A DNA stretch of 64,000 nt, from the NCBI GenBank assembly GCA_964521915.1, contig CAZFTP010000001.1, positions 67,611 to 131,610 on the forward strand, read 5' to 3'. Shown piece after piece: positions 749 to 56,414 of the stretch. The translations under genes and the position numbers were made by a program. The notes beneath the pieces were generated by a model. It saw nothing but the letters and a program-made list of their open reading frames with translations, had not been told where the DNA came from and searched no databases. The stretch is from an uncultured Candidatus Marinamargulisbacteria bacterium. GTDB taxonomy: Bacteria > Margulisbacteria > Marinamargulisbacteria > CAZFTP01. Numbering within the stretch: position 1 is the stretch's first letter; each line of letters starts with the position of its first letter.

Positions 749-3250
749 ATGCAAGAAAAAATTCAACCGCAAAAGCCGTATCTTTTTGTCGATATTTCTA
801 AACCAACCGGTATAAAACCGAATGTTGAGCATAATAAAACTTTATCTGATTTATCAGCTGTTTTTGATTATTTAATTTCCGTTAATAAAACGACTTCTAT
901 CAGCCATTTAATCCAGAATATTAAAAGTCTGTTAGAAAAAAAAGAACCTGTCCCTCCTAGTGTTTACAATCGAATAACACAACAAGCAGAAATGTTTTTA
1001 CACCTAATTAATACTTTACCAACAGAAATACAATATAAAAGTATTGCTAGTTTGCAATTAATTATTCAAGTCTTATCCGATATTAATAACGATCTAACTG
1101 ATCATCAAAAAGAAAGCCTTACTAAATTAAAAGAACATCTTTTTAGTTTACTTTCTAAGTACGAGCCTCATTTTTATCTAAACCAAAAAGAAATAAGAAG
1201 AGCTTTTTTTAAATTAAAAAATGAATCAACTACACTTACTGAATTACTAACACAACCACCTCTTGAAAAAAATTCAAATAACCTAAAAAATAATTCTAAA
1301 TTTTCTTTACCGGAATTAATTAAATTAACCAGCAAACAAAATCATCAACGTGTTGTTTTAAGACAAATTGAAACAACACCAAAAAACATTCAACAATTAT
1401 TACAAAATCTCAATCTTTATTTAAACCAAATTATCAATAATCAAATTCAAAATAGTCAAATAATTATGCATAATATTACCGATACACTTAACAAATTAAG
1501 TACCCTGTTTTTATTTTCTCATTTTTTAACACCTACTTTATATCATCATTTAATTATGATTTTTGAAACGGCTGTAAACTTAATTGATAACCAAAAATAT
1601 CAAACTTTGATTGATAAACAACTTACTTTTTTAACAAAAACTATCCCTAAAATGCCAATTAATTTACCAGTATTAGAAACGAATACTTTAAAATTAAATT
1701 TTTTAGATCATGGTTATTTAAAATCATTATTATCGATAACTTCACTAGAATTAAAACCAGATTTTGAAAATGTAATTGAAATAGTCAAAAATGCAATAAA
1801 GTCACCTAAAAATAATAATTTAGAAACAAATCAAATTTTTATTAAAGATCTTATTACTAAAATCATTAAAAATCGTGCCAGCAATCGAAACGACCTCTTG
1901 GTACTTCTGGCAACAATTTTACGATTAGGACAACTTTTAATCATAACTCAAAAAAATTCTCTTCAATTCCGTAATTATTTAGCTTTAATGGACACCCTGA
2001 AAAATGTTAATTACAATTTTAAAGAAACTAATCTTAATATATGGACTATTCTTAATAGAATAGATTTTAAAATTTTAACTAATATTAACTCTATTTCTAA
2101 TACCGGTACCACTAAAAACACGCCAAATATAAATTTTACTACAGATCAACAACTACCAAAATTAAATTCTTATAATATTAATCATCAGCTAATTGATCCT
2201 ATAATTAAACAAAAAAATGACATGCCTATTTATAAACCCAATTTTGAACATCACGAAATTTTATCGGTTTCTGATGAACCCCCAACTCTAATTGCGGAAC
2301 GAATCTTATTATTAGATAATTTTAATCATCATCAGCCTGAAGAACATATTAACTCTTTTATTTCTAATTTTTTCTGGTTTGAAGACTATTTAATAACAGG
2401 TTACGGCGATGGAACTATCAAAATTTGGCTAAAAAAAGATGATAAGTACAAACTAACTGGTTTTTTTGATTCTCATCTAGACCAAATCAATGATTTAAAA
2501 CTTTATAAAAACAACCTTGTTTCTGGTTCTGCAGACGCCAGCATCAGCCTTTGGGACGTTATTAACACTCGGCATCTTCTTAAGTTTAAAGAACATCGAG
2601 ATCAAATTACCAAATTGCATATAGGCTGGCATAATATCGGAATTGGCGATATGGAACTAGTAATGAGCAGTTCTTTAGATGGTACCGTAAAAATTTGGGG
2701 AGCAAAATCTGGTATTTGTCTTAAAACTCTAGATATTAACAATTCCGGGGTAACAGATTTTTGTTTTCAAGGTGAAATCATTATTACCAGCTCCAAAGAT
2801 CAAGTTATCAGGGTGTGGGATATCATCAATAATAATTGTTTATTAAACTTAAAAGGGCATTCTGCAGAAATTACCGGGTTAAAAATATTTGGTTCTTTAT
2901 TAATAAGTGCTTCAAAAGATCATACAATCAGATTGTGGGATTTAGAAAATGGTAATTGTGTTGATGTTCTTTACGGACATCAAGGCGGTATCAATTATTT
3001 ATGGATAGATTCCAACCAAAAACTTATTAGCGCCAGTGATGATAAAACTATCAGAATTTGGAATTTAAACAATAAAAAAACCAGTCGTATTTTAAAAGGG
3101 CACACAGCTGAAATAACTTGTATACAAACAAATAATAACCAATTATTAAGTAGCGGCAAGGATCATAAATTATTACTCTGGGATCTTACCACCGGCGAGT
3201 GTATTGAGCACTTTAACGGATCTTCACTAGCTAAAGATTTATTAAAATAA
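749..3250 (+). CDS. F-box-like / WD40-repeat protein. About 520 aa of Asn/Gln-rich helical N-terminal region, then a putative F-box-like segment (PPTLIAERILLLDNF), then 7 WD40 blades
   Basis: Repeated WD dipeptide blades (IKIWL, ISLWDV, VKIWG, IRVWDI, IRLWDL, IRIWNL, LLLWDL) each preceded by GH/SxS motifs; L-x-x-E-I-L-L-L-D motif about 50 aa before the first blade; no Walker A motif. Confidence 0.6.
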   Translation: MQEKIQPQKPYLFVDISKPTGIKPNVEHNKTLSDLSAVFDYLISVNKTTSISHLIQNIKSLLEKKEPVPPSVYNRITQQAEMFLHLINTLPTEIQYKSIASLQLIIQVLSDINNDLTDHQKESLTKLKEHLFSLLSKYEPHFYLNQKEIRRAFFKLKNESTTLTELLTQPPLEKNSNNLKNNSKFSLPELIKLTSKQNHQRVVLRQIETTPKNIQQLLQNLNLYLNQIINNQIQNSQIIMHNITDTLNKLSTLFLFSHFLTPTLYHHLIMIFETAVNLIDNQKYQTLIDKQLTFLTKTIPKMPINLPVLETNTLKLNFLDHGYLKSLLSITSLELKPDFENVIEIVKNAIKSPKNNNLETNQIFIKDLITKIIKNRASNRNDLLVLLATILRLGQLLIITQKNSLQFRNYLALMDTLKNVNYNFKETNLNIWTILNRIDFKILTNINSISNTGTTKNTPNINFTTDQQLPKLNSYNINHQLIDPIIKQKNDMPIYKPNFEHHEILSVSDEPPTLIAERILLLDNFNHHQPEEHINSFISNFFWFEDYLITGYGDGTIKIWLKKDDKYKLTGFFDSHLDQINDLKLYKNNLVSGSADASISLWDVINTRHLLKFKEHRDQITKLHIGWHNIGIGDMELVMSSSLDGTVKIWGAKSGICLKTLDINNSGVTDFCFQGEIIITSSKDQVIRVWDIINNNCLLNLKGHSAEITGLKIFGSLLISASKDHTIRLWDLENGNCVDVLYGHQGGINYLWIDSNQKLISASDDKTIRIWNLNNKKTSRILKGHTAEITCIQTNNNQLLSSGKDHKLLLWDLTTGECIEHFNGSSLAKDLLK

Positions 3251-6123: not shown

Positions 6124-8445
6124 TTACTTCACTTCTTTAATTTCGTTAAATTTAGCTTTAAAAGCAACTACAATTTCAGGGTCAAATAATTTCGAATTTT
6201 CTATTTGTTTAAGGGCTTCTTCTGGTGTAAATCGACAGGTTTGGTGATAATATTTGTCGTTTGCTTTAGTAAGATAATAGCCAAAATTAGTTAAGGTATC
6301 GTAATGATCCGCCAAACCGATAATTTTGGCTTCTAAAGGAATTCGTTCATCACTTATACCTTCGGGGTAACCGGAACCATCAAAACGTTCGTGATGTAAT
6401 TTAGCGGCATTAATGTATTTATGTAAAATAGGGAATTGCTCTAATAATTTTGCCCCTTTTTCGGCATGAGATTTTAAAAGTATGTAATCTTCAAAAGTTA
6501 TTTCATTGGGTTTAAATAAAGCATTTGAATCAATCAATAATTTTCCGACATCATGAAGAATCGCACCATATTTTACCAAGTTAATTTCATCTTGGCTTAA
6601 ATTTAAACCTTTAGCTATAATTTCCGCAATTTTACTTACCCTTAAATTATGCATATACAAGGATTCATTTTTTTCTTTTAATTTATAAGCAAAGGCTTTA
6701 ATAGTGTTTATTTCTGAATATTTTGAGAGATTGGCTTGCTTAACTCCTTCTTGAACTTTTTGATAAGTTAGTACTCGGTTTCTTCCTAATTTTTTAGCAT
6801 TATAAAGAGCTTTATCTACCATGTATAAAAGTAAATCTTCCTCATTGGTGGTTTCTAAAAACATTTGGGCTTTGGCTGAATAGGCCATATCATCCGGAAA
6901 AGAGGAAATACCAAAACTAGCAGTAACTTTTAAGGGAGTAATTTTGTAGTTATTGTTTTCGAATTCCTCATTAATTCTATTTTGTAATAACTTTTTCATA
7001 TCATTAACAAAATCAGATTTTTTTATAGTCGGTTCATTAACTGGGAAAATTAATAATTCAATTCTGTTATTAACAATTTTTTCTAAAAAAATAGTTTCTA
7101 TTTCTTTTTGGGTATTTTTAATTTTAACAGAATAAAACTCTAATTCTTCAATTTTCATTCTGATTTTTTCCGCAACAGTAAAAGCTTCCATACTATCTGC
7201 ACCAACCAAAATACCGATTATTTCTTCACCACCGTATCTAGCGGCAATATCGGTTTTCCTGATAGTGTCCTTGAAAATTGATGCGACATGTTTTAAAACC
7301 ACGTCTCCTACCGGATGTCCAAAATTATCATTAATCTTTTTAAAGAAATCGATATCTAACATCACTAAAGAAATTGGGTAGGTATGGAGTTTTGATTTTT
7401 CTATTTCATCAACTATACTTTTTTGAAAAAATCCACGGTTGAATAATTTAGTTAGCCCATCTTCTAAAGCAAGAATTTCAACTGAACTATATAATTCTGC
7501 ATTTTCTATGGCAATAGAAATAAGGGAAGCCATCTCAATAATTATTCTTCTTTCTCTTTCATCGTAAGGTGTATCATCTTTTTTATCGGTAACATTAATT
7601 ACCCCTATTACTTGGTCTTTGGCTAATAGCGGAACGCACATAAAAGAATTAGAGCGGTAATTGTTTCTGTTAGTAAATTCAGCTTTTAATTTATTTAGGT
7701 TATCTATATCAGGAACAAAAAAAGGAATGCCACTTTGAGCCACTTTACCAGCTATTCCTTCACCTATTTTTTGTCTTTTACCAATAATTTTTCTTTTGGG
7801 TTTAGCCGCTTTTATTACCAATTCTTCTGTATTTTGATCTAAAAGCATTACGGAAATAGTTTTAGAATTTAACATCTGGGAAATTATGTTAATAATATAT
7901 TGTAAAGTTTTTTCAATATTCAATGTTGAAGTGATGATTTTAGAAGCAGTGTATAGTTTTTTGTATTCATCAAGAACAAATTTTAAATCAGTAATATTTT
8001 TTTCTAATTTTGAAGCTTTATTATTTTTTTTAGAAGAAACAAGATTAATTTTTAATGACATATTTTTGAGAATGGTATTATTTTCAACCATTTGCATGAG
8101 GGATTGAATGTTTATTTCAACCAGTTTGATAGAATCAGAATAATGAAATACTAATTTTGTTTCGTTAAGAATTGTTTGAGGCACATCATCACGATAATTT
8201 AATAATAGTGCTATTTCCGGTTTAGCTTTTTTAGTTTCCAAAAGGTAATTTTGAAGATAAATAAGAAATTCACCGTTATTTTTGAAAGGATTTAATATAA
8301 TAATATCCGGTGGGTTTTTTCCAAGTTTTTTTCTAAAACCAGATAAAGAACTTTTAATTTCCAAGGAAAAATCTAATAACGGAGATAAAACATTGAGTTT
8401 ATCTAGGAAATCTTTTCTTTTATCATTTATTAAAATTCTAATCAT
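6124..8445 (-). CDS. c-di-GMP signalling protein: degenerate receiver-like N-terminus, GAF-like region, GGDEF domain (GGEEI variant) and HD-GYP domain
   Basis: RYGGEEIIGIL (GGDEF-type), HDVGK and HHERFDGSGYPEG (HD-GYP); the N-terminal PDIIILNPF resembles a receiver with Asn at the phospho-acceptor position. Confidence 0.75.
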   Translation of the reverse strand: MIRILINDKRKDFLDKLNVLSPLLDFSLEIKSSLSGFRKKLGKNPPDIIILNPFKNNGEFLIYLQNYLLETKKAKPEIALLLNYRDDVPQTILNETKLVFHYSDSIKLVEINIQSLMQMVENNTILKNMSLKINLVSSKKNNKASKLEKNITDLKFVLDEYKKLYTASKIITSTLNIEKTLQYIINIISQMLNSKTISVMLLDQNTEELVIKAAKPKRKIIGKRQKIGEGIAGKVAQSGIPFFVPDIDNLNKLKAEFTNRNNYRSNSFMCVPLLAKDQVIGVINVTDKKDDTPYDERERRIIIEMASLISIAIENAELYSSVEILALEDGLTKLFNRGFFQKSIVDEIEKSKLHTYPISLVMLDIDFFKKINDNFGHPVGDVVLKHVASIFKDTIRKTDIAARYGGEEIIGILVGADSMEAFTVAEKIRMKIEELEFYSVKIKNTQKEIETIFLEKIVNNRIELLIFPVNEPTIKKSDFVNDMKKLLQNRINEEFENNNYKITPLKVTASFGISSFPDDMAYSAKAQMFLETTNEEDLLLYMVDKALYNAKKLGRNRVLTYQKVQEGVKQANLSKYSEINTIKAFAYKLKEKNESLYMHNLRVSKIAEIIAKGLNLSQDEINLVKYGAILHDVGKLLIDSNALFKPNEITFEDYILLKSHAEKGAKLLEQFPILHKYINAAKLHHERFDGSGYPEGISDERIPLEAKIIGLADHYDTLTNFGYYLTKANDKYYHQTCRFTPEEALKQIENSKLFDPEIVVAFKAKFNEIKEVK

Positions 8446-9130: not shown

Positions 9131-9226
9131 CTATTTTTACAAAAATAAAATAAGTTTTTTTATATTTACAAAAATAAAAAAACTAAGTATATTAGCTTTT
9201 AATAGTAAAAAATAAGAGGTGTGATA

Positions 9227-9733
9227 ATGGGAAATGGTGTATCAAAAACAAGTGCCGGACAGAGAAAGACAACAAAATCTTCATTAGCCGGAAGTTCAGA
9301 AGACAAAAAAGCGGAAAGAATTTTAAGGCTTATAAAAGCAAATGAGAATTGTGAAGGATCAACTTTCCTTGCTTCTTTACCTCAAATGGGAATGACTCCT
9401 GTTGAAATAGCTAGATTACAGGTTGCGACCCTAGCTTTAACAAGTGGTAGTATAAGCAGAGGTAAAGCAAAAACTGGTTTAGGAGCTGAAACGTTAGAAA
9501 GGATTTCCCAAGGGCATCCTTCAGGCAGAGCTACTCCACCTAAACCCAGACCTACTTTTGCACACAGTCATTCGTATGATGATTCACCCCTTCAATTACA
9601 TCCTGGTTATTCTTCTAGTTCCGAAATGGATTCTCCAAGAAAAAAATCCAGATCAACAGATGATATAGCTATACCCCCGGATAAAAAAAGAAAAACAAAA
9701 TTAGAAGAAAGAAGAGGGTCAGATCAGGTTTAA
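9227..9733 (+). CDS. hypothetical eukaryotic-like protein: N-terminal MGNGVSK (N-myristoylation consensus), Ser/Pro-rich, C-terminal KKRK basic patch
   Basis: ATG at 9227 lies 5 nt downstream of AAGAGGTG; local GC is clearly higher than surroundings; no recognisable bacterial domain. Confidence 0.55.
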   Translation: MGNGVSKTSAGQRKTTKSSLAGSSEDKKAERILRLIKANENCEGSTFLASLPQMGMTPVEIARLQVATLALTSGSISRGKAKTGLGAETLERISQGHPSGRATPPKPRPTFAHSHSYDDSPLQLHPGYSSSSEMDSPRKKSRSTDDIAIPPDKKRKTKLEERRGSDQV

Positions 9734-12058: not shown

Positions 12059-13720
12059 CTAAGTTACCTTTTGAACATCTTCTGCCACCGAACTAATCGA
12101 ACTTAAATTAAACTTCTCTTTAATAATCTTATAAACATTTGGCGATATAAAAGCAGGCAAAGTTGGTCCTAAAATAATATTTTTAAATCCTAGGCTTAAA
12201 AGCATTAATAATACCAATACGGCTTTTTGTTCATACCAAGCAATATCAAAGGAAATTGGTAAATCATTAAGATCACTTAAACCAAAGACTTCCTTTAATT
12301 TTAAGGCAATTACAGCAAGAGAATAACTATCGTTACATTGACCGGCATCAAGTACCCTAGGTATACCGTTAATTGTACCTAAATCCAAAAAATTATACCG
12401 ATATTTAGCACAACCGGCAGTCAAAATTATTGTATCCGACGGTAATTTTTCGGCAAATTCGGTATAGTAAGTTCTTTCTTTAAATCGACCATCGCAACCA
12501 GCCATCACTATAAAACGTTTAATTGCGCCGGATTTTATAGCTTCTATAATCTTATCAGCATTAGCTAAAACGGTATCGTGAGCAAAACCAATTGTTAATT
12601 TCTTGCCTTCTTTAACCTCTAAATCGCCTAACTCTTGGGCTTTTTGTATAAGCCCGGAAAAATCTTTCGGTTGATTATTCTTCCTATCTTCAATATGTTT
12701 TACTCCCGGCCAAGCAACAAGTCCAGTAGTAAAAATGCGATCTTCATAAGTATCCAAAGGTTTTTGAATACAATTGGTGGTCATTAAAATTGCACCTTTA
12801 AATTCCGCAAACTCTTTTTGTTGATTGTACCAAGAAGACCCGAAATTCCCGATCAAATTTCCATACTGCTTGAAAAACGGGTAAGCATTTGCCGGCAACA
12901 TTTCACCATGAGTATAAATATTCACGTCTGTACCTTTAGTTTGTTCTAAAAGCTCAGCTAAATCTCTTAAATCATGCCCGCTAATTAATATTCCCGGTCC
13001 TTTTATGGTGCCGGTAAAAACTTCGGTAATTTCTGGTTTGCCATAGGTACTAGTGTTTGCAGTATCTAAAAGCGCCATAGTTTCTGCTCCGAAATTACCG
13101 GTTTCAATAATTAAACCCAAATACTCTTCGGCAGTTAAATTACTCAAACCTATTTTAGCTAGACAATTTTCGATAAAATCAAAAATCTTTTCATTTGTAT
13201 AACCTAAAACATAAGCATGATCTAAATAAGCCGAAATTCCTTTTAAACCATAGATAAGTAAATATCTTAAAGACCTAATATCTTCATTTTCAATACTTAA
13301 AATACCAACTTCTTTTGCTTTAGCTAAATAAGTTTGTTTTGAACTAATACTTGGTTGCCAATAGGCACTTTCTGGAACAAAGTTAAAATCAAAGGGCTGT
13401 TTGTTTTGTTCTTGGAATTTAACCAAAAACTTTTCTTTTAAACTGTCTCTTAAATCAAAAGCTTTATTAATAAGAACTATTAAACGATCATCATCAAAAT
13501 TAACATTAGTGATAGTTGAAAATAAGGCTTGAATAATAAAAACCGAAATAGTTTCATTTTTTAACCCAAGTTTTTTACTTTCAACCTGCCAAAAGCTTAA
13601 ACCGAACAATAAATAAATTAATAAATCCATTAAATTACTGGAATCGTCTTTTTTGCCGCAGACACCTTGGATGCTACAGCCTTGATTTTTCACGGTTTCT
13701 TGACATTGGTAGCAAAACAT
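12059..13720 (-). CDS. hcp: hydroxylamine reductase / hybrid-cluster protein
   Basis: MFCYQCQET N-terminal Cys motif of Hcp; start moved to the ATG at 13720, which is preceded by AAGGAG. Confidence 0.9.
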   Translation of the reverse strand: MFCYQCQETVKNQGCSIQGVCGKKDDSSNLMDLLIYLLFGLSFWQVESKKLGLKNETISVFIIQALFSTITNVNFDDDRLIVLINKAFDLRDSLKEKFLVKFQEQNKQPFDFNFVPESAYWQPSISSKQTYLAKAKEVGILSIENEDIRSLRYLLIYGLKGISAYLDHAYVLGYTNEKIFDFIENCLAKIGLSNLTAEEYLGLIIETGNFGAETMALLDTANTSTYGKPEITEVFTGTIKGPGILISGHDLRDLAELLEQTKGTDVNIYTHGEMLPANAYPFFKQYGNLIGNFGSSWYNQQKEFAEFKGAILMTTNCIQKPLDTYEDRIFTTGLVAWPGVKHIEDRKNNQPKDFSGLIQKAQELGDLEVKEGKKLTIGFAHDTVLANADKIIEAIKSGAIKRFIVMAGCDGRFKERTYYTEFAEKLPSDTIILTAGCAKYRYNFLDLGTINGIPRVLDAGQCNDSYSLAVIALKLKEVFGLSDLNDLPISFDIAWYEQKAVLVLLMLLSLGFKNIILGPTLPAFISPNVYKIIKEKFNLSSISSVAEDVQKVT

Positions 13721-13773
13721 TGTTGTTCTCCTTTTTTCTTTTTTGAAAAGAAACAAAATTTTTTATTTTATAT

Positions 13774-14053: not shown

Positions 14054-14449
14054 TCACAAATTTTTTATCTTAGTTCCCTCCAACTTAGCAAAAAATTCCT
14101 CCTGAAATTCTTTTAAAATCTTATGCATGGGGCAACTGCCTTGTAAAAAACAATTTCCTTCAGCATTTAAGCATTCATTAAAACGGAATTTAGGATCAAT
14201 AATATTAATTATATCTAAAACACTCGAATTTTTATTAATAAATCTTACTCCTCCTGTTTTACCTCTTTGCGATTCAATAATTCCTTTTTTCGCTAATTGC
14301 TGAAAAATTTTGGCTAAAAAAATTTCTGACACCTTAATATTTTTCGCAATTTGACTAATAGTTATAACATCATCCTGCGGTTGATTAGCTAAAAATATTA
14401 TTGCTCTTAAAGCATAATCTAACCTTCTACTAATTAATATCTCAATCAC
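14054..14449 (-). CDS. Rrf2-family (NsrR/IscR-like) Fe-S transcriptional regulator
   Basis: N-terminal wHTH (DYALRAIIFLA), C-terminal C-x6-C-x5-C cysteine triad; lies immediately upstream of hcp. Confidence 0.8.
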   Translation of the reverse strand: MIEILISRRLDYALRAIIFLANQPQDDVITISQIAKNIKVSEIFLAKIFQQLAKKGIIESQRGKTGGVRFINKNSSVLDIINIIDPKFRFNECLNAEGNCFLQGSCPMHKILKEFQEEFFAKLEGTKIKNL

Positions 14450-14690: not shown

Positions 14691-14709
14691 TACGTAATCT
14701 AATTACGTA
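14691..14709. promoter_or_regulatory. inverted repeat tacgtaat-cta-attacgta between the predicted promoter and RBS of the 14728 gene
   Basis: Seen in sequence; 19 nt upstream of the start codon. Confidence 0.35.
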
Positions 14710-14727
14710 ATAGAGGGGGATAATATA

Positions 14728-17457
14728 ATGGATGCAATAGGTTTACCAAAACCAATTCCAACTAATCCTGGAGTAGCTCAGGAAATAAACGCTGAACCTA
14801 TAAAAGATGAAATTAAAAGAGGTATCTGTTCACCAACTAATTTACTTATAATCAAACCACCGTTAGATACTTCTCTCCTAACTATTATACCAGGTAAATT
14901 ATCAGATAAACAAACCGAGATTAATGATACAAGCGCTTATTTTTCAGAACTATCTTCATCAAAAGCAAAAGCTATAGTACCTACGCCTACTCCACCGCTA
15001 CCGCAAACATCGCCGTTACCATTATCATCAACATCTACATCCCCCCCAATTTCTACGCCAAGCCCAACAGTTCAAGGTTTTTTTACAGCTGATCTATTTC
15101 CTGGCTACGAAGAATCTGCTTCCGCTGAAACAAAACGAAAAATAATTACAGATAACTTTTACAATGAATATTTTAGCGATAACGAAGAATTAATTGGTAG
15201 CCTTACTAGAAATTTTTGCCAGATAAAAGAGACTTTATTAACTACAATACCTGAAAACCAACTAAAAATAGTCTCACAATTATGTACAGAAATAGAAAGA
15301 TTAATTGCTCTAAATATTAATGGTGAAGAAAATAATAATCCCTACTTTAATGCTGTAAATGCCTATATAGAAAGAATTCTAAAATTATTATTTGAAACTT
15401 TATCAGGGATTGAACCCGAAATAGATGGACCTTTACACACAATATATAATACTGCATTAGAAAAATTAAAAACGGCTGATAATATTGTTTATTTCCTATT
15501 AGAAAAAACTAAAACTTTTGAAAATTTAACAGAAACAAATTATTTCATAAATACCTATAAATTTGCAGATTATTTTGATCCAAATAGCGTTGAGACAAGT
15601 CTATCTGAAGCAACTGAGGCTGAAAGTCAACCTGAACAACCAAGAATATATCCTCACGATTTCAGAGAACTATATAGAAAAAAATTAGAGTTTGAGTTAA
15701 ATTATTTCCAAACTACGCTTTCAGATTTAGAAGAATACCTAAAAACTTCAATACCAGATTCTAATCCGGAACTAAATAAACTAATGGAATTGATCAATCA
15801 AAGTAGAAGCACTTTTCCTCCTGATTTAACTCCCCTAAATTTTTTGGAACTAAAAAATTTAACTGCCCATTGCAATGATCAGACAATAAAAATCATCTCT
15901 TCATTATCAGATTTATTAAGCAATATATTGTTGCCAGATTTTATTGATGTCCAAAAAGAAAAAATAAATATTTATATACACATGGGTAATCTATTACAAA
16001 AATTTAATAGTGAAGCATCTGTTATTTATTATCAAGAAGCTTTAAAAATTACAGATCAACTCCTTTTTTTATTTCCATTATCAGAAACAAACCTGGGAGA
16101 AATAAGGCAAAAGAAAATCACAATTACGGATAATATTATAAATGCTCTATCCATAGAGCTTAAAAATACGGTTTATGGTAATGATATATCCCTAATATTC
16201 TACAAAATAGCTAATTACTATTATCAATTAGGTCTTTACTCTGAAAAAATTGGCGAAATAGAAACCGCTCTTGATTATTATACCTTGGCATTATCTACAT
16301 ATTCAAAACAGATTTCGCATAATAATATATTTATCAGAACAAGAATAATGGAAATTAATCAACGTAAAGAAAAATTAGAAGGCACAAAAACAGATACTAA
16401 TGCTGAAAATGCTTTAAGTAGAGCTAAAATTATTGTTAAGCAATCAATTGCTAGGATGAATGGCGCTACTGAAGATACGCCAGAAGTAATACCTGCACCT
16501 GTAGAACCAAGCCAAATATTAAAACAAATTCAAAGAGACGGTGAATTATTTATTTTTCCCGATATTCATGCATCTTTAGACCTTGCCAGCCAGATGTTTT
16601 ATGCCGCCGGATTAACAGATGAAGATGGAAGCTGGCTAACTCCAGCTCAAAGAGCAGATCGCGGTGGAAATTCAGAACCAATTAACGTTGTAATACTTGG
16701 TGATTTTATAGATAGAGGTTTATATTCACACGAAACTCATGAATATCTAAAATATTTAAAGAAACTAGCAATAGCAACAGGCGATAACCTTGTTATTCTA
16801 GCAGGTAATCATGAGGCCGAAATATTCAGAAGCTCTTGTGGGGTAAATAATACTCCATATTTAGCAGATGAAATAAGAACTGAATTAAAAACAGATATTC
16901 TGCAAGGAACTATTCAATTAGCTTATTACAATCAAAAACATAATATTTTATTTACTCATGCTGGGTTAACTGAAAACTATTTAAAAACGTTTTATGGTCC
17001 TTTAGTTGGGAAACCCGCAACTGAAATTAGTACAATCCTAAACCTAGAATTTGTACAAAGTTTAGAAAATCCAGAAATTCTTACTAGATTATTAGTTGCT
17101 AGTACAAAAAGAGGTGGTTCTGCTGAATCTGGCAGTATGCTTTGGGCTGATGCAGAAGAATCATTTGCAGAATCAGGAGTACGCCCCTATATAAATATCT
17201 TCGGACATTCTCCTCATGCTATACCAATACAAAAACGCTCATTAATATGCTCTGATACCGGAATTTGCCCTTACTATGGCGGGCATATGTCTTTTCTAGT
17301 TAAAACCAAAAATCCGAATGAACCAATTAAATGGGTTCACTCAGAAGTTGATTATGAGGATTTACCAGAAGATCAAGATATTGAAATTTCTGGATATGAT
17401 TTAAAAGAAAATCCGGTAAACTCTGCTTGGGCTGTTTTGGGTATTCCAGGTGCATAA
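14728..17457 (+). CDS. large TPR-like + PPP-family Ser/Thr phosphatase protein (PP5-like architecture) with a Pro/Ser/Thr-rich N-terminal linker
   Basis: C-terminal motifs PDIHAS (GDxHG-like), GDFIDRG (GDxVDRG), GNHE, HAG, GHSPH; central TPR-like YYQEALKI/YYQLGLY/ALDYYTLAL; N-terminal PTPTPPLPQTSPLPL. Confidence 0.7.
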   Translation: MDAIGLPKPIPTNPGVAQEINAEPIKDEIKRGICSPTNLLIIKPPLDTSLLTIIPGKLSDKQTEINDTSAYFSELSSSKAKAIVPTPTPPLPQTSPLPLSSTSTSPPISTPSPTVQGFFTADLFPGYEESASAETKRKIITDNFYNEYFSDNEELIGSLTRNFCQIKETLLTTIPENQLKIVSQLCTEIERLIALNINGEENNNPYFNAVNAYIERILKLLFETLSGIEPEIDGPLHTIYNTALEKLKTADNIVYFLLEKTKTFENLTETNYFINTYKFADYFDPNSVETSLSEATEAESQPEQPRIYPHDFRELYRKKLEFELNYFQTTLSDLEEYLKTSIPDSNPELNKLMELINQSRSTFPPDLTPLNFLELKNLTAHCNDQTIKIISSLSDLLSNILLPDFIDVQKEKINIYIHMGNLLQKFNSEASVIYYQEALKITDQLLFLFPLSETNLGEIRQKKITITDNIINALSIELKNTVYGNDISLIFYKIANYYYQLGLYSEKIGEIETALDYYTLALSTYSKQISHNNIFIRTRIMEINQRKEKLEGTKTDTNAENALSRAKIIVKQSIARMNGATEDTPEVIPAPVEPSQILKQIQRDGELFIFPDIHASLDLASQMFYAAGLTDEDGSWLTPAQRADRGGNSEPINVVILGDFIDRGLYSHETHEYLKYLKKLAIATGDNLVILAGNHEAEIFRSSCGVNNTPYLADEIRTELKTDILQGTIQLAYYNQKHNILFTHAGLTENYLKTFYGPLVGKPATEISTILNLEFVQSLENPEILTRLLVASTKRGGSAESGSMLWADAEESFAESGVRPYINIFGHSPHAIPIQKRSLICSDTGICPYYGGHMSFLVKTKNPNEPIKWVHSEVDYEDLPEDQDIEISGYDLKENPVNSAWAVLGIPGA

Positions 17458-17714
17458 GAAAGTGCCTAGTTTTTGGGATCACTGGTAATTATTGCAAATA
17501 TGTTGTATTATAAAAAAATTGTATAGTAATAATATAAATTATTGTTAATTCTTTCTAATTACTTCTTTTATTTAAGTGTATTAAAGATTTCCAAGAACTA
17601 GCAAAATTTTCCTTCCCGTTTGGATCCATATCTTGGATATTATTAAGATACACTCTTTGTAATCGCTAATAATTAGCCTAATAAAATCTACAAAGAAAAT
17701 AAATAGGAGTGTTT

Positions 17715-22710: not shown

Positions 22711-23355
22711 TTACGGTGTAGTAGCAACTTCTACAAAATCAATACACAATTTAGTAGCATAAGCTTGCTTCATAGCTTGTTTAAAATCGCCTTGCAGTTT
22801 TATTTCTAAAACTTCATCTATTGGCTGAGACCAACCTTCATCTGGTTTTCCCCAAGTTTTTAAGGCAAAGCCTGTTGAAGAAACCGAAGTATAATTACTA
22901 TCTGCTTTTAATTTCGCGTAAATCGGCAATATACTACTAGAATTATCTACACCTACAAAACCCTCACTATTTTCTAAATAAATCTTTAATTTATAATCAC
23001 TATTAGAAACAGCAAGATCATTGTAAACTATATTTAGTAATATTTTTCCGCCAGCTTCTACTTTATCTAATTCTGAAACAGAAAATCTTACCGAATTATA
23101 CATTTCAAAATTAGTTAAATTACCAATATCTACCGTAACATCTGTTGCATCTTTAGTTTCTAAAGAAGTAACCCCTATTTTATTAGTATTATTACTAATA
23201 CTCAAATTTATCTTACCAGAAGCTAAAACTGTTTCCGTAATTTTTGGTGTTTCAACAACAGAATCTGAAGATACTGGCAAAACAGATTTAGTGGTACTAC
23301 AACCAAATAAACCTAAAAACGCACAAAATATAATTAAAAATGCTATTCTTTTCAC
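22711..23355 (-). CDS. hypothetical lipoprotein
   Basis: Signal peptide with lipobox LFGC; Ser/Thr/Asn-rich; no recognisable domain. Confidence 0.5.
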   Translation of the reverse strand: MKRIAFLIIFCAFLGLFGCSTTKSVLPVSSDSVVETPKITETVLASGKINLSISNNTNKIGVTSLETKDATDVTVDIGNLTNFEMYNSVRFSVSELDKVEAGGKILLNIVYNDLAVSNSDYKLKIYLENSEGFVGVDNSSSILPIYAKLKADSNYTSVSSTGFALKTWGKPDEGWSQPIDEVLEIKLQGDFKQAMKQAYATKLCIDFVEVATTP

Positions 23356-23921: not shown

Positions 23922-24668
23922 ATGAAAAAAACATTATTCATTATTTTTTTCAGTATCATTTTTTACCATACCGCTTTTTCTATTGGTACAGACCAAAGCA
24001 TTATTGAAAAAGCTGTTACTACAAACCAAGAAAACAATTTTAATCTCATTATTTATACAAAAAAACCCGCTGTTTTTATAAATGCTTATAATTGGACTAT
24101 TGACCCAGATGGTAATTCGGTAATTTTTCAAAATCAACCGATTACAGATTGGTTAATTATTCCCAATTTTATCAAAAAAAAAGATCCGAATTTAACTTAT
24201 ATAGAAATTCCTTATACCGTTAAAATTAAAAATCCGGTACAAGCAGAATACTTAGCCAAACTGATTATTTCAGAAGCAGATGACAAAAATACCAATATTA
24301 ATATTACCATGGGTTTAGGAATTCCAATTTATGTTTATTTCAAAGATAAAATCAAAATGAATAATTCTGATATTATGATCAAACAAGTCCGTTATGACCA
24401 TAAAAAATCATTATTAGAAGTAATAGTTGAAAATAACAGCAACGTACATATAAGACCTGATATAAATTTTACGATTGAAAAATCAAAAACCAACCTAGGA
24501 ACTGAAAATTTAACTTCAGGTTGGCCAATATTACCGACCAGCACCAGAAAATTCAGTAAAAAGATCGATCTAAAACCAGGAAAATATCAACTAATTTTTA
24601 CTTCTACTTGGGGGAAACTCTATAATTTAAGCTTTTCTAAAAAAGAAGTTAAAACTTTAATTTTATAA
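23922..24668 (+). CDS. hypothetical secreted protein (signal peptide), bracketed by two MITE-like copies
   Basis: N-terminal hydrophobic signal; no recognisable domain. Confidence 0.5.
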   Translation: MKKTLFIIFFSIIFYHTAFSIGTDQSIIEKAVTTNQENNFNLIIYTKKPAVFINAYNWTIDPDGNSVIFQNQPITDWLIIPNFIKKKDPNLTYIEIPYTVKIKNPVQAEYLAKLIISEADDKNTNINITMGLGIPIYVYFKDKIKMNNSDIMIKQVRYDHKKSLLEVIVENNSNVHIRPDINFTIEKSKTNLGTENLTSGWPILPTSTRKFSKKIDLKPGKYQLIFTSTWGKLYNLSFSKKEVKTLIL

Positions 24669-38485: not shown

Positions 38486-39679
38486 TTATTCTATGATTTT
38501 AGTTACTACACCCGCACCTACTGTTCTACCACCTTCTCTAATAGCAAATCTCATACCATCTTCACAAGCTACTGGAATTATTAATTCTACATCAATTGCA
38601 ATATTATCACCAGGCATAACCATTTCAACACCTGCTGGCAACTTAATTTCACCAGTTACGTCTGTTGTTCTAATATAAAATTGTGGTCTGTAACCAGCAA
38701 AGAAAGGAGTATGACGTCCACCTTCTTCTTTCTTTAATACATAAATATTAGCTTTAAATTTGTGGTGAGGAGTAATACTTCCAGGTTTTGCTAATACCAT
38801 ACCTCTTTTTAAAGTATCTTTATCAACACCTCTTAAAAGAGCACCTAAATTATCACCAGCTACACCTTCGTCTAATAATTTTCTAAACATTTCCAAACCA
38901 GTTACTGTTGTTTTAAAAACTTTTTCTGCCATACCTACTAATTCTACTTCTTCACCAACTTTTACTTTTCCTCTTTCTACTCTACCAGTACCTACAGTAC
39001 CTCTTCCAGTAATACTAAATACATCTTCAATAGGCATCAAAAACGGTTTATCAATATCTCTTTTTGGTTCTGGAATATAACTATCAACTGCGGCTAATAA
39101 TTCTCTAATGCATTTTTCGCCTTCTTCACCAGCTTTTGCTTCTAAAGCTTTTAAAGCTGAACCTTTGATTATTGGAATATCATCTCCAGGGAATTCGTAT
39201 TTACTTAATAATTCTCTAATTTCAACTTCAACAAGTTCTAATAATTCAGGATCATCTACCATATCAACTTTGTTCATAAATACAACGATGTAAGGAACGT
39301 TTACCTGACGTGCAAGTAAAATATGTTCTCTAGTTTGAGGCATCGGACCATCCGCGGCGCTAACAACTAAAATAGCACCATCCATTTGTGCCGCACCTGT
39401 AATCATGTTCTTGATATAGTCAGCGTGACCTGGACAGTCAACGTGCGCATAATGACGATTATCTGTTTCATATTCTACGTGGGCAGTAGCAATTGTAATA
39501 CCCCTGGCTTTTTCTTCTGGAGCACTATCAATTTGGTCATATGCTTTAAATTCTGCTTTACCATCTGCGGCTAAAACTTTTGTAATAGCGGCAGTTAAAG
39601 TTGTTTTACCATGGTCAACGTGACCAATAGTACCTATATTAACGTGTGGTTTTTTTCTCTCAAATTTTTCCTTTGCCAT
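38486..39679 (-). CDS. tuf: elongation factor Tu
   Basis: [18 protein letters not shown] and NKVD motifs; 397 aa. Confidence 0.97.
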
Positions 39680-50811: not shown

Positions 50812-52518
50812 TTAGGAAACTCTTTTTATAATAAGTAAAGAAATATCATCTCGCATTTCATGAATAGCTATTTTTTGTATTTTTTCTTTAATTGTTGCTA
50901 TTATTTTTTCTGCCGGCAATTCCGGATCTTGAATAAAATCCGCTAATAACAAATGATCTGAAATTATATCCCCATTTTTATCTTTTTGATCAAATAAACC
51001 ATCTGTATATAGTAAAAGAAAATCGCCAATATTAAGAAAAACTTCTTTTTCTTCTACATCAATATTATCAAAAACACCTAAAATAACCCCAGTTTGTTTT
51101 GGTAAAAAATCCATTTTCCTTTCTTGACTGTTATAATAGATAGGGGCTTCATGACCTGCTCTAACAAATGAAAATAAATGTTTTTTAGTATCTAATAAAC
51201 CATAAATTGCAGTTAAATACATTAAACTTTCATGGTTAGAATTTGAATTAAAAATATTGAGAACTTTATTAAATTCTTTAATTACATTTTGTGGCAAAAC
51301 TTTATTTAAAATAGAAAGCCATAATAAAGTTTTAGACATCATCATATATAAAGCGGCAGAAATACCTTTACCGGAAACATCTCCGATAACAACACCTAAA
51401 TTATCTTGAATTTTAATAAAATCATAGAAATCTCCACCTATTTTTTTAGCTGGTAAATTAAAGGCCGCTATTTGATAGCCTAAAATATGCGGAATATTTT
51501 TAGGTAAAAAATCTTGCTGAATTTTATTGCCAATATCATAGTCTCTATTCATTAATTCTAATTGCGCATTTTTTATCTTAATATTTAAAGAAAAAATAAT
51601 TAAGAGAATTAAACTACTACATATAATAATAAGTATTCCTAAAAAAGTAATTTTCAAGAAAGTGGGAAAAATTAAATTGTTAATAATCTCTTTAGGTGTA
51701 GATACTAAAATAATCCACTTTAGGTTAAAAGTTTTTATAGTATCGTAAGAAGCAATGTATTCAATATTTTGTTTTTTATATTTAACACTACCTTTTTTAT
51801 TCTTTTGTATTTCACTATAACGAATATTAGGAATTAATTCAGAAAAATCCTTTTTAAAAGTAATCTCTTTATTAGTAAAAATAATTTTACCTTTATTATC
51901 TATAACATAAAATGATTGAAGAGAATTGAACCCTAATATTGAGGTTAACCTGTCAAAAATATATTTTAAACTAATATCAACTGCTAATACACCATTAAAA
52001 ACATTATTATTAGTTGTAAGCGGGACACCAAGTATAATTGAAGGAATTTGATATTTTAAATCTGTATATTGTTCACCACCGGCAATTACACAATCTGTAA
52101 TATAAGGCTTAAGATTCTTACAACTTTGAAAATATTCTCTGTAAGCATAATTTTTATTTAATGATTCTTTTTGATAATTTGGATAAATATATTTGAGAAA
52201 GCCTAATGTATCTTCGATATAAATTCCAGTAATCTTATTTTTCTGAAGATTATAAAGTGGTAAAATTTTTTGCTGAAATTCAGAATCATTCTCAGGAATT
52301 TTCTTGAAGCTCTTAGATAAAAACAATAATTGAAATTCTAAATCATCAAAAAAATCTTGTAGATTAAAACTTAATTCTTGCAATAATTGCTGTTCTTGAT
52401 TAAAAAGCTCATCTTCAATATTAATTTTAGTAGTATGATAAGCAGTAAAACTAAAATAAGAAAAAAAAGCTAGTAATAAAGCAATGCAAAAAGTAGAAAA
52501 AAGAATATATTTATTCAT
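50812..52518 (-). CDS. membrane sensor with C-terminal SpoIIE/PP2C-type phosphatase domain (RsbU-like)
   Basis: N-terminal TM helix, extracytoplasmic sensor-like region, second TM helix, PPM domain (GDVSGKGISAALYM...YTDGL...MRDDISLLII). Confidence 0.75.
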   Translation of the reverse strand: MNKYILFSTFCIALLLAFFSYFSFTAYHTTKINIEDELFNQEQQLLQELSFNLQDFFDDLEFQLLFLSKSFKKIPENDSEFQQKILPLYNLQKNKITGIYIEDTLGFLKYIYPNYQKESLNKNYAYREYFQSCKNLKPYITDCVIAGGEQYTDLKYQIPSIILGVPLTTNNNVFNGVLAVDISLKYIFDRLTSILGFNSLQSFYVIDNKGKIIFTNKEITFKKDFSELIPNIRYSEIQKNKKGSVKYKKQNIEYIASYDTIKTFNLKWIILVSTPKEIINNLIFPTFLKITFLGILIIICSSLILLIIFSLNIKIKNAQLELMNRDYDIGNKIQQDFLPKNIPHILGYQIAAFNLPAKKIGGDFYDFIKIQDNLGVVIGDVSGKGISAALYMMMSKTLLWLSILNKVLPQNVIKEFNKVLNIFNSNSNHESLMYLTAIYGLLDTKKHLFSFVRAGHEAPIYYNSQERKMDFLPKQTGVILGVFDNIDVEEKEVFLNIGDFLLLYTDGLFDQKDKNGDIISDHLLLADFIQDPELPAEKIIATIKEKIQKIAIHEMRDDISLLIIKRVS

Positions 52519-55127: not shown

Positions 55128-56414
55128 ATGATCGATACTATCGGTAATAGCATGGCTGATATTAGAAGTGTGCCTGTAATTTGGCCTACTTCTAAAGAAA
55201 AAGTTAAAGAGACTAAACAAACAGAAGAAAGCCAACAATCTTCCAGACAAGTTTCTACTAAATCGCCTACCAGTAGTCCGGCTACTGAATCAGCTACTGC
55301 CAGCCAAACAGCTCAAGCCGCTCAAAAAGCACAAACTGCCCCGCCGCCGCCTGCTACCAGAAATATGTCAATGGCAGATGTCGTTGATTATTTATTTCAA
55401 GCAAAAATTGCTAATACAGAAGAAAACAAATTACTAGCCAGCTTTATGATGCAACACGGAATTGAACTTTCAGAAGCAAATTTTAATTCCCTTTTTAAAC
55501 TTACTAAAGGTGAAAAAAATGCTAATATGCTCGAATCTGCTGTAATAAACTTAGGTAAAGGTCTTAATGATGCGCCTAAAGGAGCAGATATTCTTAGCAA
55601 TTTTTTACAAGAAAACCCGCAATTACAACAACAAATGGTTACTGCCAGTCAAAACATTGCTAATTTACAATCTGCTTTAAACTCAACCCAACAATTAATG
55701 AATCCTGGTTTAATGTCAGGCTTACTTTCTTTGTTAAGTGAAATGGATAACAATTTTAAAAAATTATTGAAATCAGCTCAAGAAGGAAAAACCGCTATTA
55801 ATGAAATTAATCGCGGTGAAATGATTAAAAACATCAAATCTTTCTCACAATTATTACAAGGTTTAGAACAAAAATTAGCTGAAACTAATCAATTAGACAG
55901 CCCAGAAGCCAAAGCGTTACAAGAAAAAATCATGCTCCTCAAAAAAAGTTTAAACGAAGTTCAAGAAAATTTAATTTCACAGACCATTATATCAAAAGAC
56001 TCTAATAGATCAATTTCTTCAATAAATGATAGATTTGCTTATTGGCAATTACCAAACCCTTTTGACAAAAACAATCAAATTGAAATTGCTATCAGAAAAG
56101 ACCCCCATAAAAACAAAGGAGAAATTGACTCTTCAAAAACCAGAATTGTATTAAAAGTAAATACTCCGGAAATCGGGGAAATAAGTATTATTATTGATAT
56201 TTTAGATAAAAAAATCTGGTATATTTTTAATACAGAATCTGAAGAAACAAATCATTTTATAAAAAAAATGCACGCTGATTTAATAAAACAAATGGAAGCT
56301 TTAAATTATCACGTTGCCGGTTTCCAAGCAATAAAAAAGAAAATTGATTTTAAAAAATTTATTTTACCAACTGTAAATTTAGATAATATGATAAGGATAA
56401 GTACAGAAGTATGA
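55128..56414 (+). CDS. fliK: flagellar hook-length control protein FliK-like
   Basis: Low-complexity Q/S/T/A-rich N-terminus; C-terminal Flg_hook-like segment (EIAIRKDPHKNKGEIDSSKTRIVLKVNTPEIGEISIIID); synteny with flhB-C-like gene. Confidence 0.55.
   Translation: MIDTIGNSMADIRSVPVIWPTSKEKVKETKQTEESQQSSRQVSTKSPTSSPATESATASQTAQAAQKAQTAPPPPATRNMSMADVVDYLFQAKIANTEENKLLASFMMQHGIELSEANFNSLFKLTKGEKNANMLESAVINLGKGLNDAPKGADILSNFLQENPQLQQQMVTASQNIANLQSALNSTQQLMNPGLMSGLLSLLSEMDNNFKKLLKSAQEGKTAINEINRGEMIKNIKSFSQLLQGLEQKLAETNQLDSPEAKALQEKIMLLKKSLNEVQENLISQTIISKDSNRSISSINDRFAYWQLPNPFDKNNQIEIAIRKDPHKNKGEIDSSKTRIVLKVNTPEIGEISIIIDILDKKIWYIFNTESEETNHFIKKMHADLIKQMEALNYHVAGFQAIKKKIDFKKFILPTVNLDNMIRISTEV

Follow-up and report, generated by a model that had tools for sequence, protein, structure and literature searches.

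The 64,000-nt stretch analysed here (the window; GC 0.301), part of contig CAZFTP010000001.1 of an uncultured Candidatus Marinamargulisbacteria bacterium, encodes a 909-aa protein with a complete PPP-family metallophosphatase domain at its C-terminus. The family and fold of this domain are clear, and its binuclear metallophosphatase active site is intact. Sequence profiles and a structural model place it firmly in the bacterial Shelph (Shewanella-like, SLP) type, not in the eukaryotic PP5 type. With moderate confidence, and on the basis of sequence and modelling, we read the whole protein as a cytoplasmic, catalytically competent Shelph-type PPP, most likely a protein phosphatase, behind a lineage-specific non-catalytic region. 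It is thus a lineage-specific form of a known enzyme class, neither a transferred eukaryote-like gene nor a new kind of system.

The gene was first described in an annotation made from the DNA letters alone (the original prediction). The ORF (open reading frame) given there was confirmed, with an ATG start and a ribosome-binding site. In a sequence of 30% GC, a 2.7-kb open frame is not expected by chance. The identical 909-aa protein was present on two Logan contigs and on one NCBI contig (262,883 bp). Amino acid (aa) numbers below refer to this protein.

14728–17457, + strand: window phosphatase ORF, complete, 909 aa plus stop codon, ATG start
14713–14719, + strand: Shine-Dalgarno-like GAGGGGG, 8 nt 5′ of the phosphatase ATG, read from the sequence

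The Pfam family Metallophos (PF00149) matched aa 611–831 with an E value of 1.1e-9 and 39.4 bits, above its cut-off of 21.5 bits. The PPP motif set listed in the original prediction was found complete and in order: DIH(A) at aa 612, GDFIDRG at 658, GNHE at 693, HAG at 744 and GHS(PH) at 826. Its description of a large multi-domain protein, in which a long non-catalytic region precedes a complete C-terminal PPP domain, held as well.

16399–17454, + strand: Shelph-type PPP metallophosphatase domain, aa 558–909, with a leading helix (aa 558–577) and a C-terminal tail
16561–16572, + strand: motif I, D612-I-H614-A (GDxHG equivalent); D and H invariant in alignments
16699–16719, + strand: motif II, GDFIDRG, with D659 as metal ligand and R663 as first clamp Arg; sequence and alignments
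16804–16815, + strand: motif III, GNHE (N694, H695); sequence and alignments
16957–16965, + strand: HAG (H744), bacterial-type counterpart of the eukaryotic HGG; alignment and PMC535813
17107–17118, + strand: K-R795-G-G, second clamp arginine, aligned with the conserved xRGG column
17203–17217, + strand: GHSPH, with H827 as metal ligand; H827 invariant in alignments
17251–17262, + strand: S-D-T-G, aa 842–845, D843 invariant in alignments; motif defined in PMC535813
17395–17448, + strand: C-terminal tail YDLKENPVNSAWAVLGIP, with a D-L-x-x-W-type motif common to the nearest relatives in alignments

Scanned exhaustively with HMMER (E ≤ 1e-3), 1.84 billion cluster representatives yielded 276 matches, all confined to about aa 590–870 of the protein. 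When 37 of these matches were aligned with the phosphatase domain, D612, H614, G658, D659, R663, G664, G693, N694, H744, H827 and D843 were invariant. The H695 column was nearly invariant, and R795 fell in a conserved RGG column. The window protein thus has the complete set of PPP metal ligands, the catalytic GNHE histidine and the two-arginine clamp, a concept established for PPP enzymes (PMC8249667). Bacterial-type PPPs are recognised by (I/L/V)D(S/T)G where eukaryotic enzymes have SAPNY, and by HAG where these have HGG (Andreeva and Kutuzov, PMC535813). In the window protein, the corresponding S-D-T-G has Ser and not I/L/V in its first position, with Asp, Thr and Gly kept, and the protein contains no SAPNY. 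Motif I reads P-D-I-H-A (aa 611–615), with Asp and His kept and both flanking Gly replaced. The relatives showed P-D-x-H-G, A-D-P-H-G/A and G-D-V-H-A/S at this place. Because the Shewanella enzyme and the relatives vary there too, the deviation is no argument for a dead enzyme. In the full-length AlphaFold 2 (AF2) model, the predicted local distance difference test (pLDDT) score was above 90 over most of aa 561–870. The helix at aa 558–577 was confident and led into the catalytic core, and a final beta-strand was predicted at aa 901–905.

Within the PPP family, the placement was decided by profiles and fold. Compared with solved structures, the profile of the 37-match family hit Shewanella 2Z72 at 6.7e-27 (2Z72, 2ZBM and 1V73 all at E ~1e-26), and PP2A, calcineurin (PP2B) and PP1 at ~1e-13. 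A profile of a 6-member sub-clade, described below, ranked the entries in the order Shewanella (3.4e-13), calcineurin (2.7e-8), PP2A (2e-7) and PP5 (8e-5). It is the profiles that put the Shewanella enzyme first; the single window sequence alone does not. A Foldseek search of the AF2 model against PDB had three Shewanella entries at the top (E 1.6e-7). The structural comparison figure was 22.9 for Shewanella 1V73 (249 residues, 2.7 Å). The other figures were 17.4 for ApaH, 16.8 for the PnkP phosphatase domain, 16.7 for PP1, 16.5 for Rhilph2, 15.9 for calcineurin, 15.7 and 14.8 for PP5, 15.0 for Lambda phosphatase, 13.3 for WipA and 11.4 for WipB. A grouping with the ApaH/PrpE enzymes was not found: the NCBIfam ApaH model gave 21.6 bits (E 1e-4) against an equivalog cut-off of 176 bits, and membership fails. 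A PHROG family named 'NinI-like serine-threonine phosphatase' matched the protein at E 2.9e-10, and the PADLOC defence-system models gave no match.

The prototype of the Shelph branch is the Shewanella cold-active protein-tyrosine phosphatase, or psychrophilic phosphatase I (1V73, 2Z72, 2ZBM). The two proteins share the metal-ligand set and the conserved W after motif I (G-x-W segment), and in neither does motif I have its first Gly: it reads S-D-V-H-G in the Shewanella enzyme and P-D-I-H-A in the window protein. Their sequence identity in the structural alignment is about 16%. The Shewanella chain is a single-domain enzyme of 331–342 residues. The window protein goes beyond this by an insertion of ~11 residues between motifs I and II, the D-L-x-x-W-type tail and an N-terminal part of about 557 residues.

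The features of this N-terminal part were as follows:

14728–15186, + strand: predicted disordered N-terminal region, aa 1–153; pLDDT < 50 in the full-length AF2 model
14980–15069, + strand: Pro/Ser/Thr-rich low-complexity stretch PTPTPPLPQTSPLPLSSTSTSPPISTPSPT (PTPTPPLPQTSPLPL...SPT), aa 85–114
15187–16398, + strand: orphan region, predicted all alpha-helical in the full-length AF2 model, aa 154–557
16210–16296, + strand: only TPR-model match (TPR_2), sub-threshold, aa 495–523

Judged by its sequence, the N-terminal part is an orphan, without any relative found in the collections searched. No relative of this ~590-aa part was found among the 1.84 billion cluster representatives. An indexed search of 5.8e9 proteins with the full-length query returned only the window protein itself. 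Comparison of the N-terminal region with the search matches by local phmmer and BLAST gave nothing, the N-termini of the nearest relatives included. The Pro-rich N-terminal stretch noticed in the original prediction lies at aa 85–114, and Pro, Ser and Thr make up 60% of aa 81–125. The protein contains no signal peptide and no membrane segment (maximum Kyte-Doolittle 19-residue mean 1.1).

For aa 154–557, the full-length AF2 model predicted about 17 helices, with pLDDT mostly between 50 and 87. An AF2 single-sequence model of aa 125–600 had a mean pLDDT of 43.5; because of this low value when modelled alone, no fold can be claimed for the helical region. No Pfam domain was found in aa 154–557. 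Of the TPR-like helical repeats proposed for it, the all-helical character stood, as a prediction of low confidence, and the TPR assignment was unsupported by hidden Markov models, repeat analysis or fold search. The match of TPR_2 at aa 495–523 had E values of 0.0035–0.0084 and 16.6–17.8 bits against a cut-off of 27; cut-offs for the TPR models are 25–30 bits, and none was reached by the window protein. A search for 34-residue internal repeats gave a best off-diagonal self-match of 33, compared with 30.3 ± 5.2 in shuffled sequences, and 30% of the shuffles reached 33. The fold search had no TPR protein among its matches. Full-length PP5 (8GAE_E) aligned over 236 residues only, which is no more than a catalytic domain.

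By sequence comparison, the window protein belongs to a small sub-clade marked by an insertion of ~11 residues between motifs I and II.

16636–16680, + strand: LTPAQRADRGGNSEP, aa 637–651, holding the sub-clade-specific ~11-residue insertion

The spacing between the motif I Asp and the GD of motif II is 46–47 residues in the window protein (P0001) and in P0003, P0004, P0006, P0008 and P0014, and 34–37 residues in nearly all other relatives listed. The full-length members of the sub-clade also share the C-terminal D-L-x-x-W-type tail. The relatives with the insertion (P0003, 630 aa; P0014, 707 aa; P0006, 530 aa; P0004/P0170, 392 aa; and P0008) are uncharacterised and ranked among the top matches of the exhaustive search, with 29–47% identity along the aligned part. 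Groundwater metagenomes are the source of P0006, and the cluster of P0004 includes MFA5879088.1, annotated as a metallophosphoesterase of Candidatus Margulisiibacteriota. Most of these relatives have long N-terminal regions without a recognised domain, which are dissimilar to that of the window protein. Between P0003 and P0014, similarity outside the catalytic domain was weak and present only just upstream of it (E 3e-4). A copy of the window gene was sought across the GTDB species representative genomes, and none was found, so that its source genome is not part of that set. When the sub-clade alignment served as the query of an indexed search, the only returns were weak metallophosphoesterases of Halosimplex type. 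The query members themselves were not recovered, and the search is uninformative.

Two of these relatives, P0003 and P0014, are probably paralogs of the window gene in the same genome.

257–2149 of contig L084, from SRR4343442: P0003 gene
1036–3159 of contig L085, from SRR4343444: P0014 gene

Paralogy is suggested because both runs also carry the window gene, the provenance of the two sequences is NCBI plus Logan, as for the window gene, with long contigs at NCBI, the GC of their loci (0.317 for P0003, 0.293 for P0014) matches the 0.301 of the window, and the two were grouped in 100% of bootstraps in a neighbour-joining (NJ) tree. That both carry the ~11-residue insertion supports it further. 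The two runs were also looked for in the literature, where nothing on them was found. The gene directly 5′ of P0014 (L085, 1–987, + strand) encodes 328 aa with a match to Pfam L27 at aa 85–110 (27.7 bits against a cut-off of 22, E 2.2e-6), which could be spurious. L27 is a domain of eukaryotic scaffold proteins. On the contig of P0004 (JGI metagenome 3300037810; L086, 1–10568), four large ORFs of 1046, 612, 682 and 641 aa flank P0004, with no Pfam family on record.

Length and multi-domain layout are not confined to the window protein. Among the 149 nearest relatives, 36 were at least 450 aa long, and 25 had an N-terminal extension of at least 100 aa. Fusions included TPR with Metallophos (P0013), FHA with Metallophos (P0036, P0037, P0057 and P0060) and Metallophos with VWA (P0026). 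The statement that bacterial PPPs are single-domain proteins of about 250 aa was therefore too strong. These multi-domain Shelph-like bacterial proteins join the same catalytic family to accessory protein-interaction domains. Their accessory domains, however, are recognisable Pfam families, whereas the accessory region of the window protein matches none. Length alone would not set a bacterial PPP apart; the distinctive trait of the window protein is its orphan accessory region.

In the mechanism that we propose, the catalytic domain (aa ~558–909) would remove phosphate from proteins, at phosphoserine/phosphothreonine and/or phosphotyrosine. By analogy, we infer a protein rather than a nucleotide as the substrate, because the nearest characterised relative dephosphorylates proteins, because relatives are fused to FHA, TPR and VWA domains, and because the PHROG match is to Ser/Thr phosphatases. 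FHA domains bind phosphothreonine on proteins. The disordered aa 1–153 and the helical aa 154–557 may act as a targeting, scaffolding or autoregulatory (autoinhibition) module that sets partner choice or localisation, since accessory domains do so in other multi-domain PPPs. The probable paralogs P0003 and P0014, with other N-termini, would direct the same chemistry to different partners.

Several points weigh against this reading. The Shewanella enzyme is Tyr-specific, and phosphotyrosine versus phosphoserine/phosphothreonine specificity in the Shelph family is unpredictable from sequence (PMC535813). The tree gives little support for the exact place of the window protein within the Shelph-like radiation (NJ bootstrap 27–37%, in a tree of database matches only). 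Motif I is P-D-I-H-A instead of G-D-x-H-G, with the metal-binding Asp and His kept. The assignment of the three genes to one genome is drawn from shared runs, data sources and GC. Finally, the role given to the N-terminal region is pure conjecture, and its structure was modelled at low confidence.

The original prediction had seen in the order of the domains a PP5-like architecture. Under such an explanation, N-terminal TPR repeats would autoinhibit and target a eukaryote-type PPP domain, and the gene would have been acquired from a eukaryote or code for a eukaryote-like effector. The likeness to PP5 (1S95, 8GAE) is a helical region followed by a catalytic domain of the PPP superfamily. The N-terminal region is predicted all-helical and has its one marginal TPR-model match at aa 495–523, and the true fusion of TPR with a Shelph-type domain in P0013 means that such an architecture exists in bacteria. 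The catalytic domains, however, come from different PPP branches: conventional eukaryotic PPPs have HGG and SAPNY, whereas the window protein has HAG and S-D-T-G, and the profiles and the fold also favour the Shewanella type. PP5 has a TPR domain, and none is detectable here: all TPR models remained below threshold, no internal repeat rose above the shuffles, and the fold matches contained no TPR protein, with 8GAE_E aligned over a catalytic domain's length. The TPR domain of PP5 is short, and the N-terminal region of the window protein (about 590 aa) is far larger. The gene, moreover, has native composition. The PP5-like reading of the catalytic domain is largely refuted, and we regard this explanation as a whole as very improbable. 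A catalytically dead pseudo-phosphatase serving only as a scaffold is equally hard to credit. It would agree with a motif I that departs from consensus (P-D-I-H-A for G-D-x-H-G), but the protein keeps every metal ligand, the catalytic GNHE histidine and the two clamp arginines, the first Gly is missing from the active Shewanella enzyme as well, and P-D-x-H and A-D-P-H variants recur among relatives.

Two further explanations accept an active enzyme and differ in its target. As a nucleotide or nucleic-acid phosphoesterase (an ApaH-like Ap4A hydrolase or a PnkP-like end-healing enzyme), the protein would use its helical N-terminus to bind nucleic acid or a partner. This is doubtful: the NCBIfam matches that point to it are weak (ApaH, E 1e-4; Pnkp, E 0.02) and far below their cut-offs (21.6 bits against 176, and 13 against 750), and although PHROG 8238 'RNA ligase' matched at E 1.4e-6, the Shewanella protein phosphatase is clearly closest by sequence and fold. 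A gene for a DEAD-box helicase follows on the same strand after 250 nt, but a terminator-like hairpin stands between the two genes, and relatives are fused to FHA, a reader of phosphothreonine in proteins. The second explanation is an effector phosphatase secreted by a bacterium that lives with a host or partner, comparable to Legionella WipA (5N6X, 5Y9O) and WipB (5NNY); the variable orphan N-termini would target the host, and the disordered N-terminus would carry a secretion signal. WipA and WipB likewise join a bacterial PPP-fold domain to non-catalytic regions. A small family of probable paralogs with unrelated, fast-evolving N-terminal regions, the predicted disorder of the N-terminus and the presence of eukaryote-type domains nearby (a WD40 protein at 749–3250 and the L27 match beside P0014) fit such an enzyme. 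We nevertheless consider it unlikely. Unlike the case of these effectors, the window gives no sign of secretion or host association: the protein has no signal peptide, and no secretion-system genes were seen in the annotated parts of the window. In structure, WipA and WipB match much less well than the Shewanella enzyme does (13.3 and 11.4, compared with 22.9), the window carries cell-wall genes and genes for making tryptophan, leucine and thiamine, as is typical of self-sufficient cells, and one relative (P0006) comes from groundwater metagenomes. Still less probable, in our view, is a further extension in which the ~400-residue helical region has a new fold and forms, with the disordered N-terminus, a targeting module specific to the lineage, and in which the three probable paralogs, alike in their catalytic core, are diversifying exported or partner-directed phosphatases acting on the phosphoproteins of another organism, which may be a protist host, prey or neighbour of the Margulisbacteria cell. 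If true, it would be the first effector-like system proposed for the Margulisbacteria phylum.

The preferred reading, a Shelph-type phosphatase behind a lineage-specific region, corrects a tempting misreading: a helical region joined to a PPP domain is no evidence for a gene of PP5 type or eukaryotic origin. Little work has been done on bacterial Shelph-type enzymes that carry accessory regions. A small family that combines one catalytic core with long N-termini lacking any recognised domain, in a poorly known phylum (Candidatus Margulisiibacteriota), offers a test case for accessory-region control of bacterial PPPs. Since the system is of a known kind, only an incremental gain is to be expected.

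The composition and the neighbours of the gene bear on its origin. The original prediction had described the 5′ part of the gene as GC-richer than background and had suggested horizontal acquisition. The first 300 nt do have a GC of 0.36, compared with 0.30 in the window, and this 5′ end coincides with the Pro/Ser/Thr/Ala-rich part of the protein. The whole gene, however, lies within the range of the window, with GC 0.319 and third-codon-position GC (GC3) of 0.17, compared with 0.24–0.37 and 0.14–0.25 in other window genes. Horizontal transfer inferred from composition was rejected, since these values are native and typical of the window. The core chromosomal neighbours also speak against acquisition, as do the relatives, which are probable paralogs and a Margulisiibacteriota protein.

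The neighbourhood of the phosphatase gene is ordinary chromosome with core genes, and no mobile-element genes were seen in the annotated parts of the window.

12059–13756, − strand: hybrid-cluster protein/prismane (hcp) gene
14054–14449, − strand: Rrf2-family regulator gene, adjoining hcp
14691–14709, strand not assigned: perfect 8-3-8 inverted repeat TACGTAAT-cta-ATTACGTA in the phosphatase 5′ leader/promoter region, from the sequence
17448–17467, + strand: terminator-like hairpin followed by a T-run, overlapping the phosphatase stop codon; consensus scan only

The Rrf2-hcp pair is divergent from the phosphatase gene, and the 278-bp intergenic region includes the inverted repeat. The DEAD-box helicase gene starts 3′ of the phosphatase, behind the terminator-like hairpin. 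Other window genes encode MgtE, ThiC, LeuA/C/D, TrpE/G, CysRS, EF-Tu, RNase Y, Mur ligases, MraY and AccD.

The inverted repeat had been pointed out as a promoter palindrome. It is present, ending 19 nt before the ATG, and could be an operator. In all, the window holds 79 perfect inverted repeats of this kind (8-bp arms, 0–6 nt loops). Composition-preserving block shuffles contained 21.9 ± 4.6 such repeats, and 44 of the 79 had at least two G/C per arm. The palindrome was looked for upstream of the paralogs P0003 and P0014 and was not found there. A shared operator was rejected, as the repeat is missing 5′ of the paralogs and such repeats are common in the window.

The host is most likely a member of Candidatus Margulisiibacteriota. 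The clearer taxonomic signal came from EF-Tu (38486–39679, − strand), which was 90–93% identical to metagenomic relatives and 84% to its best named relatives, from Candidatus Margulisiibacteriota; the annotation in the P0004 cluster points the same way. The best matches of RNase Y, 45–58% identical, were from Clostridia, Armatimonadota, Margulisiibacteriota and Thermodesulfobacteria, and are not decisive taxonomically.

Several other proteins of the window were recorded in passing. The WD40 protein (749–3250, + strand; 833 aa) has a C-terminal beta-propeller (Pfam WD40, E 1.9e-38), and its N-terminal 530 aa have no Pfam family above threshold. Its layout resembles that of the phosphatase, with an orphan N-terminus before a domain type best known from eukaryotes. 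ORFs of 170–428 aa without a Pfam family at the thresholds used lie at 9221–9733 (+), 22711–23355 (−), 23922–24668 (+) and 55128–56414 (+). Further signalling proteins are a GAF-GGDEF-HD-GYP protein, encoded at 6124–8445 (−), and a dCache_1 domain with a SpoIIE/PP2C phosphatase, at 50812–52518 (−).

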